DNA of 59,093 bases from Bacilli bacterium (GTDB taxonomy: Bacteria > Bacillota_I > Bacilli_A > RF39 > UBA660). The notes under the pieces were generated by a model that saw only the letters and a program-made list of their open reading frames with translations, searched no databases and had not been told where the DNA came from. Where the stretch lies: positions 71,267 through 130,359 of the forward strand of contig JAFWGF010000049.1 of NCBI GenBank assembly GCA_017512495.1, read 5' to 3'. The translations under genes and the position numbers were made by a program. Positions 31,197 through 41,302 of this stretch are shown piece after piece (position 1 is the first letter of the stretch; each line of letters starts with the position of its first letter).

Positions 31197-31261
31197 GAAA
31201 GTTTATACTTTCTTTTTTTTATTACTATGATAAAATTAATATATAAGAATAGGAGGTAATT

Positions 31262-33193
31262 ATGAAGAATAAAACTAAAGTAGTTTATTTAATAATTATT
31301 ATATTGGTAGTATTAATGTGTAGCATTATGACTTCTAGTAATAGTGAAATTAGAAGTGTTAAAAATGAAAAACAATTAAGTAGATTTTATAATAGATATC
31401 AATATAATGAATTTTCTTTTGTAGAAAAACTATTATTATTACCATTTAGTATTATTGTAAATGATTATAGTGTTAGGTATAATGCATGGAATTCTGTTGA
31501 TTATGTAGAAGAAACAAATGGTAGTATGACAAAAGATGCTGATGCTAGTGGTACTAAAGATTTTTCTAAAACTAATATTCAAGTAGAAGGAGTAGATGAA
31601 GCAGATATTATTAAAACAGATGGTGATTATATTTACTCAATTTCAGATAAAAATGTAGTAATTACTAATGTTAAAAAAACTGATAGTATTAAGATAGAAT
31701 CAAGAGTATCTAATGGTATACCTAATGATTTGATTATTTATAAAGATAAATTAGTAGTGATATCCGCAAAAGAAGAAAGATCTTATTATAAAAATAATAC
31801 TATAGTAAGTATTTATGATACTCAAAATAAGAAGAAACCTAAATTATTAAAAAGTTTTGAATTATATGAACCATATTATACTACTAGATGTATTGATGGT
31901 AAGCTATATGTATTTTCTAAAGGATATTTAAGAAAAGAAAATGAAAAAGTACTTAGAATTTACAAAGAAGATAAAGAAACAAAAACTATTAGTTTTAATA
32001 ATATAAAATATTTAAAAAATAATCATAGTAATATTCAAACTTTAATTGCTGAAGTAGATTTAAATAATTTAAATAAAAAATTAGAATTAAACTCTTATTT
32101 AATAGATATATCTAATGCTTATGTATCAAAGAGAAATATTTATTTGTTAGATCAAAAATATAACTATGATGAACCTGAATTAAGGGATTTGTTTGGTATA
32201 AAAGGTGTATTTGGATTATTTGATAGTGAAGATACTGATTATGGTAGAAATACACATATTTATAAATTTAGAATAAATAATGGAGTTATTTATACAGGTA
32301 AAACTAAATTGGAAGGATCAACAATTAATCAATATTCACTAGATGAAAAAGATGATAATTTACGAGTAGCACTTGAAGGTAAGGATGGTACTAGAATAGT
32401 TGTTTTAAATAGTGATTTAGTAGAAATTGGAAAGACTGAAAGTGTAGCAAAAGGTGAAAAAATGTACTCTTCTAGATTTATGGGAGATAAAGCTTATTTA
32501 GTTACTTATCAAAATACCGATCCATTATTTGTAATTGATTTAAGTAAACCTGAAAATCCTAAAGTAATGGGTGAATTAAAAATTCCAGGATATAGTACAT
32601 ATTTACATCCATATGATGATACACATTTGATTGGTATTGGAATGGAAACAGAAGAGAAAACATTTAGAGATGCAATGGGAAGAGTAACTAGTACTACTGC
32701 TGTAGTAACTGGTATGAAAATGAGTTTATTTGATGTTAGTGATATTAAAAATCCAAAACAACTATCTAAGACAAAAATAGGAGATAGTAGAACAGTATCA
32801 GCTATTTTAACTAATCCAAAAGCATTGCTATTCTCAAAAGAGAAAAACTTATTAGCAATCCCAGTTAATAATTATGCTGAAGATTTTACATCAGATATTA
32901 GTGGAGAATATGAGGAAGAAATAAATAATTTCACTAGTAGAAGTGAAAATTATATTTCTGAAGGATACTTTGTTTATAATGTTAATCTGAAAGATGGATT
33001 TAACTTAAAAGGTGTAATTAATCATAATAAGAGTATTAGTGATTATTATTACTATTATTATAATGACTCTAGATTACTCAGAGGATTATATATAGATAAT
33101 AATTTATATACTGTATCAGAAGATGCAGTCAAAGTACATAAATTAGATAATTTAGAACAAGTTACAGAATTAAAATTGAAAGGAGAAGAATAA
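31262..33193 (+). CDS. Secreted beta-propeller domain protein (Beta_propel/PF09826-like)
   Basis: TNIQVEGVDEADIIKTDG, GEKMYSSRFMGD, DPLFVIDLS, GELKIPGYSTYLHPY motifs. Confidence 0.88.
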   Translation: MKNKTKVVYLIIIILVVLMCSIMTSSNSEIRSVKNEKQLSRFYNRYQYNEFSFVEKLLLLPFSIIVNDYSVRYNAWNSVDYVEETNGSMTKDADASGTKDFSKTNIQVEGVDEADIIKTDGDYIYSISDKNVVITNVKKTDSIKIESRVSNGIPNDLIIYKDKLVVISAKEERSYYKNNTIVSIYDTQNKKKPKLLKSFELYEPYYTTRCIDGKLYVFSKGYLRKENEKVLRIYKEDKETKTISFNNIKYLKNNHSNIQTLIAEVDLNNLNKKLELNSYLIDISNAYVSKRNIYLLDQKYNYDEPELRDLFGIKGVFGLFDSEDTDYGRNTHIYKFRINNGVIYTGKTKLEGSTINQYSLDEKDDNLRVALEGKDGTRIVVLNSDLVEIGKTESVAKGEKMYSSRFMGDKAYLVTYQNTDPLFVIDLSKPENPKVMGELKIPGYSTYLHPYDDTHLIGIGMETEEKTFRDAMGRVTSTTAVVTGMKMSLFDVSDIKNPKQLSKTKIGDSRTVSAILTNPKALLFSKEKNLLAIPVNNYAEDFTSDISGEYEEEINNFTSRSENYISEGYFVYNVNLKDGFNLKGVINHNKSISDYYYYYYNDSRLLRGLYIDNNLYTVSEDAVKVHKLDNLEQVTELKLKGEE

Positions 33194-37795: not shown

Positions 37796-38289
37796 TGAGA
37801 TATAATAAGATTCGTAAAATGGATATAGCTAATGGTCCGGGTGTTAGAATATCGATCTTTTTCCAAGGTTGTGCTTTTCACTGTAAGAACTGTTTTAATC
37901 CTGAAACATGGGATTTTGATAGTGGAAAAGAATTTACTGATGAAGAGATTAATACAATTATCGAATTAGCTAAACCAGACCATATAGTTGGATTATCTAT
38001 ATTAGGTGGAGAACCAATGCATCCAAAGAATATTGAAGCTACTACTAAATTAGCTAAAAGATTTAAAGAGGCTTATCCTAATAAAACTATTTGGAGTTGG
38101 AGTGGATTTCTCTTTGATGAATATTTAAAAGATAAAGAAGTAGTTAAATATATTGATGTCTTAATAGATGGACAATACAAAGATGAATTACATGATCCAA
38201 CACTTAAATGGAAAGGATCAGCTAATCAAAGAGTAATTGATGTTCAAGAATCATTAAAAAAAGGAGAAGTAATTTTATATGAAGACTAG
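37795..38289 (+). CDS. nrdG: Class III RNR activating enzyme
   Basis: NGPGVRISIFFQGCAFHCKNC radical-SAM motif, GGEP, GSANQRVID. Confidence 0.97.
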   Translation: MRYNKIRKMDIANGPGVRISIFFQGCAFHCKNCFNPETWDFDSGKEFTDEEINTIIELAKPDHIVGLSILGGEPMHPKNIEATTKLAKRFKEAYPNKTIWSWSGFLFDEYLKDKEVVKYIDVLIDGQYKDELHDPTLKWKGSANQRVIDVQESLKKGEVILYED

Positions 38290-38737
38290 AGGATTTGAAA
38301 TAGCAAAAGGTTTTGAAGATAAAGAGATAAATTTACCAGTAAGAAAAACTAAATATTCAGCAGGATATGACATAGAATGTGCAGAAGATACTGTTGTTCC
38401 TAGTTTTAAGAAAGGAATGAATCCTACTTTAATACCTACAGGATTAAAAGCTTATATGGAAGATGATGAAGTATTATATTTATATAATAGAAGTTCTAAT
38501 CCTAAGAAAAAAGGTCTTATTCTAGCTAACAGTGTTGGTGTAGTAGATAAAGATTATTATGGTAATTCTGATAATGATGGTCATATTATGTTTGCTTTCT
38601 TCAATATTAAAGATGAAGATATAACTATTAAAAAAGGTGAAGCTATTGGACAAGCAATTTTTTCTAAATACTTAATAACAGATGATGATGTAGCTAGTGG
38701 AGAAAGACAAGGTGGATTTGGTTCTACTGATAAATAA
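38279..38737 (+). CDS. dut: dUTP diphosphatase
   Basis: AGYD, RSS, GVVDKDY, RQGGFGST motifs. Confidence 0.95.
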   Translation: MKTRGFEIAKGFEDKEINLPVRKTKYSAGYDIECAEDTVVPSFKKGMNPTLIPTGLKAYMEDDEVLYLYNRSSNPKKKGLILANSVGVVDKDYYGNSDNDGHIMFAFFNIKDEDITIKKGEAIGQAIFSKYLITDDDVASGERQGGFGSTDK

Positions 38738-38773
38738 TTTGTCGAATACTTTTTTTGAGAGGTTTTGTCGAAT
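38738..38773 (+). promoter_or_regulatory. Tandem Spo0A boxes
   Basis: TTTGTCGAAT at 38738-38747 and 38764-38773, each containing the consensus TGNCGAA, upstream of the SigF-like gene. Confidence 0.7.
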
Positions 38774-38831
38774 GACTAGCTTCTCTTTTTTATTTGTTTT
38801 ATAGTTGTTTCAGAAAGGAGGATAGAGACTA

Positions 38832-39449
38832 ATAGAAGAACTCTTAGATTATGATGGATTATTATATAGTATTATTAATAAGTATCCTAAAAGATTTGAT
38901 CATGATGATTTATATCAAGTAGCTATGTTAGGACTAATAGATGCTTATAAGCATTATGATAAGTCACTAAATACTAAATTCTCTACTTATGCATATTACT
39001 ATATAATAGGTGAAGTTAATAAGTATATTAGAGAGAGTAGTAGTCTAAAAGTTAGTAAAAGTTTAATCGATTTAAATAAAAAAATAATTAAGGTAAAAGA
39101 AATGATGACTCAAAAACTAGGAAGAAATCCTAGTAATTTAGAAATATCCTTATATTTAGATGTACCTGAAAATTTAATAGAAGAAGCTATACTTGCCAAT
39201 AATGAAGTAGAATCTATAGAAGATAATTATAATGACAATATGGTTTATGATGATACAAGCCCGACTATTTTAGATTTAAGAAGTGAAATAGAAAAACTTT
39301 CTCCTGAAGAACAAAAACTTTTAAAAATAAGATATTATAATGAATTTACCCAAATGGAAACATCTAATATATTAGGAATGAGTCAAGTACAAGTATCAAG
39401 AAAAGAAAACAAAGTATTACAAAAACTTAAGAGTAGATTAGTCTCTTAA
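38832..39449 (+). CDS. sigF: SigF-like sporulation sigma factor (probable ATA start; ORF track starts at ATG 38925)
   Basis: KFSTYA, LKVSKSL and RYY..TQ.E....LGMSQVQVSR match SigF; upstream in-frame region DLYQVAMLGL is sigma region 2; AGGAGG RBS at 38816-38821. Confidence 0.8.
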   Translation: MEELLDYDGLLYSIINKYPKRFDHDDLYQVAMLGLIDAYKHYDKSLNTKFSTYAYYYIIGEVNKYIRESSSLKVSKSLIDLNKKIIKVKEMMTQKLGRNPSNLEISLYLDVPENLIEEAILANNEVESIEDNYNDNMVYDDTSPTILDLRSEIEKLSPEEQKLLKIRYYNEFTQMETSNILGMSQVQVSRKENKVLQKLKSRLVS

Positions 39450-39457
39450 GTTTTTTT
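39421..39457 (+). terminator. Intrinsic terminator overlapping the sigF 3' end
   Basis: AAAAACTTAAGAG-N9-CTCTTAAGTTTTT followed by TT. Confidence 0.8.
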
Positions 39458-39486
39458 GTATATTTTAATTAAATATTCCCATATTA
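39458..39486 (+). promoter_or_regulatory. sigmaG-type forespore promoter for spoVA
   Basis: GTATA (39458-39462), 17-bp spacer, CATATTA (39480-39486); matches the B. subtilis sigmaG consensus GHATR/CATWHTA. Confidence 0.6.
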
Positions 39487-39500
39487 TAAATGGTGATATA

Positions 39501-39938
39501 ATGCGAAATACTAAATATGAGAGAATAGCTAATGAGCATAAGGCTGATGAGAATAGAATTGGTAATGCCATAATAGCTTTTATTAGTGGAGGAGTAATAG
39601 GAATGCTAGGGGAAATAATTATCGAGGTATTACTAGGTTTTGGAATAAATAGAACTGAAGCTATTCCTATTATGATTGTTATATTTATTTTTATTGCTAG
39701 TTTAGGTACAGCTTTAGGATTCTTTGATAACTTAGTAACTAAATTTAAGTGTGGGTTATTAATACCTATTACAGGATTTGCTCATGCAATGACAAGTAGT
39801 TGTTTAGATTATAAAAACGAAGGACCTATTTATGGATTAGGCTCTAATATGTTTAAATTGACAGGATCGGTTATTTTATATGGAATAGTATCTGCCTATA
39901 TCTTTGGAACTATTAGATATATTATAGGAGGTATGTAA
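39501..39938 (+). CDS. spoVAC: Stage V sporulation protein AC
   Basis: Likely start ATG 39501; AFISGGVIG, GLLIPITGFAHAM, GSNMFKLTGSVILYG motifs. Confidence 0.9.
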   Translation: MRNTKYERIANEHKADENRIGNAIIAFISGGVIGMLGEIIIEVLLGFGINRTEAIPIMIVIFIFIASLGTALGFFDNLVTKFKCGLLIPITGFAHAMTSSCLDYKNEGPIYGLGSNMFKLTGSVILYGIVSAYIFGTIRYIIGGM

Positions 39939-40924
39939 TGACTTTTTATTATAAGAATGTATATTTAGAAGAAACAGCTACTATTACAGGTCCTTATGAA
40001 AAGAATGGACCTTTAAGGAATTATTTTGATAAGACTTATGATGATTTATATATGGGAGAAAAATCATTTGAAAAAGCTGAAATAAAATTAGTTAAAGATT
40101 CACTAATAATGCTTATGAAGAAAAGTGGTATTAATAAAAAAGAAGTAGATTTAGTAGTGGGAGGAGATTTACTAAATCAAATAACTGCTTCTACTTATGG
40201 AAGTTATGGAGTAGGTAATGGTTTTGTTGGTATTTATGGAGCTTGTAGTAGTAGTGTTTTAGGAATGATTATTGCAGCTAATTTTATTGAAAGTAATTTT
40301 ATTAATAATGCAATCTGTTTAGTATCATCACATAATATGACTAGTGAAAAGCAATTTAGATATCCTACTGAGTATGGAGCACCTAGACCTAAAACAGCTA
40401 CTTTTACTGCTACTGGAGCTGCCTGTAGTTATTTAACTAATGAAGAAAGCGATGTTAGAGTAGAATGTGCAACATTGGGTAGAATAATTGATTATGAACA
40501 AAAAGATCCAAATGGCATGGGAAAAGCAATGGCTCCAGCTGCTATTGATACATTACTTAGACACTTTCAAGAAACGGGAAGAACAGCTGATTATTATGAT
40601 TTAATCTTAACAGGAGATTTAGGTATTTATGGAAAAGAAATATTTAAAGATTATTTATCTAAACAATATAAAATTAAGTTAATTAATTATAATGATTGTG
40701 GAGTAATGTTATATGATTTAAAAAAACAAAAAGTATTAGCTGGAGCTAGTGGACCAGTATGTAGTGCATTGGTTACATATTCTTTTATTTTTCATCAGTT
40801 AAAAAAGAAAAAACTAAAACGAGTACTATTACTCGCAACAGGGGCTTTATTTTCCCCAACTATGTTATATCAAAAAGAAAATATTAATTCTATTTGTCAT
40901 GCGATTAGTTTGGAGGTGATTTAA
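39938..40924 (+). CDS. spoVAD: Stage V sporulation protein AD (dipicolinate uptake)
   Basis: GDLLNQ, GIYGACSS, EKQFRYPTEYG, MAPAA, TGDLG, GASGPVCS, ATGALFSP motifs. Confidence 0.95.
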   Translation: MTFYYKNVYLEETATITGPYEKNGPLRNYFDKTYDDLYMGEKSFEKAEIKLVKDSLIMLMKKSGINKKEVDLVVGGDLLNQITASTYGSYGVGNGFVGIYGACSSSVLGMIIAANFIESNFINNAICLVSSHNMTSEKQFRYPTEYGAPRPKTATFTATGAACSYLTNEESDVRVECATLGRIIDYEQKDPNGMGKAMAPAAIDTLLRHFQETGRTADYYDLILTGDLGIYGKEIFKDYLSKQYKIKLINYNDCGVMLYDLKKQKVLAGASGPVCSALVTYSFIFHQLKKKKLKRVLLLATGALFSPTMLYQKENINSICHAISLEVI

Positions 40925-41274
40925 TGCTTTTAATTAATTCATTTCTATTTTGTGGGCTTATTTGTATGTTATCTCAATTAATATTAGATAATACAAAACT
41001 TACTCCCGGACATATTACTTCTATTTTAGTAGTAATAGGAGCTTTTCTAGATACTTTTAGTATCTATGATAGAATTATTGAGGTAGTAGGTGGAGGAGCT
41101 TTACTACCTATAACTAGTTTTGGACATTCCCTAATTCATGGAGCTTTAGCTCAAGCAGAAAAAACAGGAGTATTAGGTATTTTAATGGGAATGTTTGACT
41201 TAACAGCTGCTGGAATAGTCTTTGCTATTATCTTTTCATTTATATTTACTTTGATTTTTAAACCTAGAAATTAA
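40924..41274 (+). CDS. spoVAE: Stage V sporulation protein AE(b)
   Basis: GLIC..SQLILD.TKLTP, GGGALLPITSFGHSL, IFKP C-terminus. Confidence 0.9.
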   Translation: MLLINSFLFCGLICMLSQLILDNTKLTPGHITSILVVIGAFLDTFSIYDRIIEVVGGGALLPITSFGHSLIHGALAQAEKTGVLGILMGMFDLTAAGIVFAIIFSFIFTLIFKPRN

Positions 41275-41302
41275 AATATCCACAAAATTTGTGGATATTT
41301 TT
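41273..41302. terminator. Bidirectional terminator
   Basis: AAAATATCCACA-AAATT-TGTGGATATTTT between convergent genes. Confidence 0.8.

Follow-up and report, generated by a model that had tools for sequence, protein, structure and literature searches.

How can sigma F be controlled in a bacterium that lacks the genes for its partner switch? The question is raised by a locus in a 59,093-nucleotide stretch of contig JAFWGF010000049.1 (positions 71,267 to 130,359 of the forward strand; assembly GCA_017512495.1) from a Bacilli bacterium of the lineage RF39/UBA660. In this stretch, referred to as a whole as the window, a short sigF-like gene is followed by spoVAC, spoVAD and spoVAE, and neither spoIIAA nor spoIIAB adjoins it. 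Release of sigma F by partner switching is the textbook first step of cell-type-specific expression in endospore formation, and the SpoIIAA-SpoIIAB-SpoIIE switch provides the standard explanation of how one division yields two cells with different gene expression. To our knowledge, every spore-former studied uses the SpoIIAB/SpoIIE switch to activate sigma F in the right cell. The window has a G+C content of ~27% and is part of a 1.37-Mb assembly (51 contigs, 86% complete). An earlier note on this DNA had listed dut, Spo0A (0A) boxes, the sigF-like gene, a terminator, a GTATA-N17-CATATTA promoter and spoVAC-D-E as a minimal sporulation module in a reduced genome. All of these elements are present at the coordinates given below, and the genome is indeed small (about 1.4-1.6 Mb).

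The sigma gene (38832..39449, + strand; frame open 38826-39449) encodes a protein of 205 amino acids (aa) from an ATA start. Sigma regions 2, 3 and 4 were recognized through PF04542 (43.7 bits), PF04539 (31.1 bits) and PF04545 (41.0 bits), all over their gathering scores, which places the protein in group 3 of the sigma-70 factors. Its best families are the SigB/F/G subfamily (150.9 bits, cut-off 234) and the SigF equivalog TIGR02885 (143.8 bits, cut-off 321.45). Both scores fall below cut-off, the latter leaving the protein outside the SigF equivalog family as scored, and NCBI labels the relatives merely as ‘sigma-70 family’. SigB and FliA models are also matched, with SigF the best equivalog model. 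The best Protein Data Bank match is 1L0O chain C, which is sigma F in its complex with SpoIIAB (E = 4.5e-30). This alignment begins at sigma F residue 40 and thus indicates that about 30 N-terminal residues are missing; the window sigma is about 30-50 residues shorter at this end than canonical sigma F.

Three class-level relatives with SpoIIAB have their genes arranged as spoIIAA-spoIIAB-sigF-spoVAC-spoVAD, from which it follows that the window retains the downstream half of the cluster, with the sigma gene beside spoVAC-D-E in the slot of the spoIIA operon. The continuation into spoVAC-D-E, which the earlier note had given as the clostridial order, matches the spoIIA-spoVA cluster of Clostridia and Erysipelotrichales. 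In a maximum-likelihood tree, the short sigmas of the window and its relatives form one clade (100/98) that is sister to the canonical SigF of genome G030 (95/91). This clade is separate from the SigG clade, which holds the window genome's own SigG, and lies away from SigB. Support is moderate because SigF sequences overall do not form one group, owing to long branches. The sigma is under purifying selection: its ratio of nonsynonymous to synonymous substitution rates (dN/dS) is 0.09-0.22, like those of spoVAD and spoVAE. Judged by gene order, tree and the 1L0O match, the window sigma is the ortholog of sporulation sigma F at its ancestral site before spoVAC-D-E, as the SigF-like label of the earlier note had implied.

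The scores below cut-off, the matches to the SigB and FliA models and the 86% completeness of the assembly would also suit a different account, in which the sigma is a SigB-like general-stress or FliA-like flagellar factor, or in which the switch genes were simply missed. We consider this extremely improbable. The tree places the sigma beside canonical SigF and away from SigB, which was the grouping that the earlier note had named as fatal to its own reading, and the spoVA synteny is that of canonical spoIIA clusters. In addition, neither RsbV nor RsbW was found in the genome. The notion of missed genes is countered by a wider sample of the order, comprising 151 genomes including the window genome, from 86 genera, of which 150 are at least 90% complete: SpoIIAB and SpoIIE each occur in 0/151.

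Profile searches of the window genome gave the same picture. No match was obtained there with the SpoIIE model, with the SpoIIAA model or with a profile built from the order's own STAS proteins, and the SpoIIAB model matched only HATPase frames of 227-765 aa, with no small GHKL protein found. These weak HATPase matches were ruled out as SpoIIAB; the four that were inspected are histidine kinases or hybrid kinases. The 24 other species of the genus, many with genomes 94-98% complete, likewise have neither SpoIIAB nor SpoIIE, while four class-level genomes have SpoIIAA, SpoIIAB and SpoIIE all together. In contrast to the B. subtilis/clostridial system, the window genome is without the anti-sigma factor and kinase SpoIIAB, the phosphatase SpoIIE and SpoIIAA, and falls outside SpoIIAB/SpoIIAA/SpoIIE control of sigma F. 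The missing switch is neither a rearrangement nor an assembly gap. The earlier note's claim that the anti-sigma and anti-anti-sigma genes are missing from their slot can thus be extended to the genome and the genus, with no intact spoIIAA or spoIIAB elsewhere in the genome to undo it. Across the order, the claim stands for the anti-sigma factor and only in part for the anti-anti-sigma factor: a SpoIIAA-derived STAS protein persists in 91/151 genomes, with none in the window genome.

Loss of the switch has not been accompanied by general loss of the sigma factors. SigG and the short SigF are kept together in about 122/151 order genomes (about 80%), and both are lost in about 20-29/151. Within the genus (25 genomes), SigF, SigG and SpoIIP are jointly present in about 20 species and jointly absent in five (G001, G004, G010, G012, G019); the exceptions are G016, which is without SpoIIP, and G022 and G011, in which SigG was not detected.

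The rest of the genome encodes a broad set of sporulation genes, and the label of a minimal module does not hold. With phmmer, five sigma factors were found over all open frames of the genome, and NCBIfam assigns the other four to SigG (362.6 bits, NF006071), SigE (302 bits; with an N-terminal pro-sequence and a SpoIIGA gene upstream), SigK (296 bits) and SigA. The presence of a separate SigG, of SigE with SpoIIGA and of SigK refutes the suggestion in the earlier note that one sigma serves both the F and G roles. Scores from curated models, several of them below the curated cut-offs, were obtained for Spo0A (279.7 bits, above the cut-off of 200), SpoIIR (141.7 bits), SpoIIGA (103 bits), SpoIVB (275 bits), YunB (88.1 bits), YlmC/YmxH (63.1 bits, above 44.2), SpoIIP (168.7 bits, above 123), GPR (221 bits, above 120), SpoIID (113.8 bits), SpoIIM (47.5 bits), YabG (202.6 bits) and SspI (58.7 bits, above 58.35). 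Sequence probes matched SpoIVA (E = 1.5e-192), an alpha/beta-type small acid-soluble protein (SASP), SpoVS, SpoVG and a SpoIVFB-like protein. The last of these was a phmmer match to the probe alone, and its trimmed sequence matched no NCBIfam model. Probes for CsfB and Fin gave no match or noise in the genome, a weak negative. Taken by gene content, with Spo0A, four sporulation sigmas, engulfment genes, SpoIVA, SASPs and GPR, the genome carries the signature of an endospore-former, and the downstream logic of the B. subtilis/clostridial system (SpoIIR, SpoIIGA/pro-SigE, SigG, SigK) is kept.

Some further regulators were observed alongside this set. They include a weak SigH-like sigma (C2:8475-9077 of the genome; 52 bits, far below cut-off) and a second SigA-like paralog of 460 aa (C27:2327-3706), and some relatives have sigma-like domains within frames of 600-800 aa. 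A soluble orphan histidine kinase of 218 aa, with HisKA and HATPase domains only, is encoded at C13:23769-24449 (-) and is a candidate for a direct Spo0A kinase. Among metatranscriptomes, only two share ~3% of sampled words with the query.

The sequence before the sigma gene suggests how its synthesis may be controlled. The motif TGTCGAA occurs twice in the window, both times on the + strand and within the 88-nt gap before the sigma gene; the total is not above chance (2 vs 1.8 expected in the window), yet the two copies are clustered. The distal box (38740..38746, +) is an exact match that is present in some relatives only. The proximal box, TTTTGTCGAA (38766..38772, +), is also exact and lies at a fixed distance in 19/23 orthologous loci, at -58 to -60 from the start codon (-66/-67 in three loci). 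The inferred core promoter (38777..38805, +) consists of a weak -35-like TAGCTT, a 17-nt spacer and a -10 element TATAGT, with TGtTTTATA as an alternative extended -10, and a conserved TAGA...TTTTTTATTTGTTTTAT block covers this region in alignments. Putative 0A boxes lie close to the -35 element and the genome encodes Spo0A; the promoter thus has the features of Spo0A activation, and we infer that it is served by sigma A plus Spo0A~P. The B. subtilis/clostridial spoIIA operon likewise has Spo0A boxes upstream and an orthologous sigma; in the window, the box-bearing promoter directly abuts sigF. A reverse 0A box (TTCGACA) was also observed upstream of spo0A itself (genome C16, about 31250-31300), consistent with autoregulation.

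The downstream end of the sigma gene overlaps a terminator-like hairpin with a T-run (39421..39457, +). The hairpin itself (39421-39455; -12.9 kcal/mol, z = -3.9) covers the stop codon and recurs in relatives; it was missed by a generic terminator scan because its stem is A+T-rich. Immediately after it lies a predicted forespore-type (sigma F/G) promoter (39458..39486, +), formed by GTATA (39458-39462), a 17-nt spacer and CATATTA (39480-39486), which ends 14 nt before the spoVAC start. The position of this promoter is conserved in most orthologous loci, with CATAWTA or GGnTAnATTA as the -10 element. The earlier note had called the promoter sigma G-driven. Its forespore type is upheld, while the choice of sigma G over sigma F is not assignable, as most relatives have a GG-containing, sigma-F-like -10 element at this site.

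Similar elements occur at other genes. GTATR-N17/18-CATAWTA occupies the promoter position of spoVAC, sigG, spoIVB, sspI and an unidentified gene (C47), the sites beyond the window being C10:5694(-), C4:23790(-), C23:10263(-) and C47:15825(+); the predicted promoters read GTATG-N18-CATAATC before sigG and GTATA-N17-CATAATA before spoIVB. The motif is a candidate signature of the forespore regulon in this lineage. Its genome-wide count (19 vs 22.6 expected) is uninformative and the five matches in promoter position are informative; a promoter consensus scan gave no signal above shuffled sequence.

Translation of the sigma gene is also unusual. A ribosome-binding site read from the sequence, GAAAGGAGG (38813..38821, +), is conserved in all relatives, and an in-frame TAG (38823-38825) closes the sigma frame upstream. 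There is no ATG, GTG or TTG at the true 5' end, where the aligned start codon is the ATA at 38832, and 7 nt are inserted between the ribosome-binding site and this codon. The ATA and the insertion are common to the window and one other species (L006), and both were reproduced in contigs of four independent metagenome runs without indel or base difference. Other relatives have ATG or GTG at M-E-E-L-L, including those at 84-89% identity, which have a normal ATG and no insertion. The ATA start reflects either very weak initiation or early decay. Between the window and L006, both with ATA, the sigma dN/dS is 0.22 at dS 0.45, which argues against a long-dead gene; it is the highest of the values obtained (0.09 for the ATG-start pair L074-L077).

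From these findings, a mechanism for the locus can be proposed. Spo0A~P would activate the weak sigma-A-type promoter, whose -35 abuts the proximal 0A box, and sigma F would be made. As no kinase/phosphatase partner switch would keep it inactive, sigma F would be active once made, and its activity would be set mainly by the amount synthesized, through Spo0A~P-dependent transcription and, in the window species, also through very weak initiation at ATA. It would then switch on the forespore-type promoters at sigG, spoIVB and spoVA, and presumably also at spoIIR. Cell-type specificity would arise downstream, at the SpoIIR-SpoIIGA-SigE step together with control of SigG, or through a factor that has yet to be recognised. 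As the best explanation of the whole, we read the locus as the sigF-spoVA part of an endospore programme that is real but rewired, with synthesis-set sigma F, a proposition whose probability we judge to be evenly balanced. Control of sigma F by synthesis only, taken as a claim in itself, is a tentative proposal that lies at or just under that balance.

Several points weigh against this explanation. As the lineage has no cultured member, spore formation has never been observed in it. SpoIIID and SpoVT were not found in the genome, although this is a weak negative obtained with sequence probes only. A sigma-F-type promoter was not recognised upstream of spoIIR, and the assignments of promoters to sigma factors depend on published consensus motifs. 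The trait is dispensable, as the complete gene set is gone from five species of the genus. The ATA start of the window species and one relative could be a first step of gene decay, and it is the pair formed by these two that has the highest sigma dN/dS. Finally, loss of SpoIIAB in B. subtilis leads to uncontrolled, harmful sigma F activity, which makes a replacement inhibitor plausible, and none was found.

Decay is the core of one competing explanation, under which the lineage once formed spores and now carries the sigma and spoVA genes as leftovers that are being lost, maybe reused for stress or dormancy. It would account for the ATA start with its 7-nt insertion after the ribosome-binding site, for the disappearance of SigF and SigG from the five genus species and from other genomes of the order, and for the many sporulation proteins that score under curated cut-offs, and it suits a host-associated lineage with small genomes. 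We regard it as improbable, since the sigma, spoVAD and spoVAE evolve under purifying selection, even between the two ATA-start species. Furthermore, the tested genes (SigF, SigG, SpoIIP) are kept or lost jointly rather than eroded piecemeal, the promoters, ribosome-binding site and terminator are conserved, and close relatives retain a normal ATG. Intact sporulation genes number more than 25, and all inspected loci have an open sigma frame, although two order-level SigF-like matches (G158, G100) have one internal stop. Sequence variants of RF39, along with known spore-formers, also reached chicks by way of the egg surface, as few other taxa did (PMC7028958), a point that applies if the order is RF39.

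The other competing explanation is suggested by sister genera. One weak SpoIIAA-like STAS gene is present in each of the 91 order genomes mentioned above (22-62 bits, all below the cut-off of 114.75), and in at least 16 cases checked it lies directly upstream of the short sigF with no gene between. These proteins of about 110-120 aa are encoded at loci L085-L104 (sister genera) and L061:2137-3136, in genomes without SpoIIAB and SpoIIE; in the sister family, the genes run dacF, STAS, sigF, spoVAC-D-E. Such STAS-sigF pairs without spoIIAB represent evolutionary intermediates. Canonical SpoIIAA proteins all have the DSSG motif with the phospho-serine. The serines are replaced in 20/21 of the aligned order STAS proteins, which is consistent with loss of both the kinase and the phosphatase. 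The order STAS protein could act as a new kind of sigma F partner that does not depend on phosphorylation. The window genus has lost the sigF-adjacent STAS gene that most sister genera keep.

A non-homologous anti-sigma-F factor might accordingly have replaced SpoIIAB and hold sigma F until septation, being STAS-based in the sister genera and something else in the window genus. The adjacency of STAS genes to sigF in many SpoIIAB-less genera, with stop/start overlap in several of the loci checked, would fit such a factor. So would the loss of the phospho-serine from proteins that are otherwise well conserved, which suggests a new phosphorylation-independent function, and the established harm of uncontrolled sigma F in B. 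subtilis. In several genera, moreover, the STAS-sigF pair is closely preceded, on its own strand, by an open reading frame of 74-95 aa (L085:20-307, L086:1216-1443, L087:1199-1432, L088:1202-1441, L091:10-234, L102:1662-1898). Its product combines a polar, coiled-coil-like N-terminus with a C-terminal membrane anchor, and this architecture is kept while the sequences diverge. We consider a replacement inhibitor unlikely: the window genome has no STAS gene and no small GHKL protein, its HATPase frames being the long ones described above, the gap between dut and the sigma gene holds a promoter only, and no candidate was identified.

In the window genus, STAS genes are confined to three members, where they lie beside an unrelated PP2C module. 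In this module, a membrane sensor is fused to a PP2C phosphatase (PF07228) and HATPase_c_2 (PF13581), as seen at L023:469-2541 (G013) and also in G001 and G008, with the STAS gene on the same contig. The module resembles the RsbV-RsbW-RsbU system of sigma B and fused PP2C-HATPase_c_2 switches. The fusion was rejected as a replacement switch, as it has no homolog in the window genome, occurs in the asporogenous G001 and is not next to a sigma gene at L023, the one locus inspected.

The locus runs nrdD, nrdG, dut, the 88-nt gap, the sigma gene, spoVAC, spoVAD, spoVAE, a bidirectional terminator, a convergent RNHCP-domain gene, scpA and scpB. The upstream neighbour dut (dUTP diphosphatase; 38279..38737, +; NF010561, 191.5 bits) fills the slot held by spoIIAA-spoIIAB in canonical relatives. 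It lies directly 5' of the sigma gene in many members of the genus and is separated from it by unrelated cargo in others, within a conserved order dut-(variable cargo)-sigF-spoVACDE-RNHCP-scpAB. The dut-sigF junction appears as an insertion hot spot that holds, depending on the species, glyA-thyA-folA, a Bro-N gene, an ORF6N-like gene with a 217-222-aa protein without family match, or an ABC transporter with membrane proteins (L006:1643-4257, L074:296-2910, L077:2415-2915, L007:2109-3654, L009:1421-5898). These contents rule out spoIIAA or spoIIAB hidden in the gaps of the relatives.

Downstream, the three adjacent genes match the family models for the SpoVAC/SpoVAD/SpoVAEB core of the SpoVA dipicolinic acid channel. 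These are spoVAC (39501..39938, +), which passes PF03862 (95.8 bits, cut-off 25) without reaching TIGR02838 (129.3 bits, cut-off 164), spoVAD (39938..40924, +; NF006160 406.2 bits, above the cut-off of 402; PF07451 403 bits) and spoVAE of the SpoVAEB type (40924..41274, +; TIGR02839 140.7 bits, above 131.1). A bidirectional terminator with a 13-pair stem, found by the terminator scan (41273..41301, no strand assigned), separates spoVAE from a convergent gene for a cysteine-rich RNHCP-domain protein (PF12647; 41301-41690, -), the position of which is conserved across the genus and not in the sister family.

Cultured Erysipelotrichia ([Clostridium] innocuum, Erysipelatoclostridium ramosum, Turicibacter sanguinis) are class-level neighbours with similarly reduced sporulation gene sets. 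They are missing spoIIID, most of spoIIIA and spoVT, yet form spores. In contrast to the window lineage, which is without SpoIIAB and SpoIIE, they keep spoIIAA, spoIIAB and spoIIE. A closer parallel is offered by a 2024 survey of the uncultured Bacilli order RF39, in which spoIIAB and spoIIE are reduced or absent, spoIIGA, spoIIM, spoIIP and spoVG are present, and sporulation ‘with markedly different regulation’ is predicted (PMC10868615, Microb Genom 2024). The gene profile of the window genome fits this description and does not fit ML615J-28 or RFN20, described as without spoIID, yabG, spoIVFB or spoVAD. As that survey reported the absence of spoIIAB and spoIIE, the present finding was partly anticipated at the level of gene content. 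The survey covered KEGG orthologues at family level, with the sigF locus outside its scope (PMC10868615). New relative to it are the retention of sigF at the ancestral site, the non-phosphorylatable STAS remnant, the loss of STAS in the genus, the selection on the sigma, the promoters and the ATA start.

In its broadest form, the proposal would make the textbook partner-switch step dispensable: the whole order would run the sigma F, E, G and K cascade without the kinase or phosphatase, most genera having repurposed the leftover SpoIIAA as a sigma F partner that acts without phosphorylation, and the window genus, which dropped even this, relying on synthesis only. We hold this as possible, if on the unlikely side. 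A large natural clade that, without the switch, keeps sigma F and most of the other tested core sporulation genes under selection is a natural experiment on which parts of the circuit are essential and on whether there are other ways of restraining sigma F. With their STAS-sigF pairs, the sister genera supply a specific candidate for a novel type of sigma regulator. In addition, predictors of spore-formers in metagenomes that require spoIIAB or spoIIE may misclassify this abundant gut and rumen lineage.

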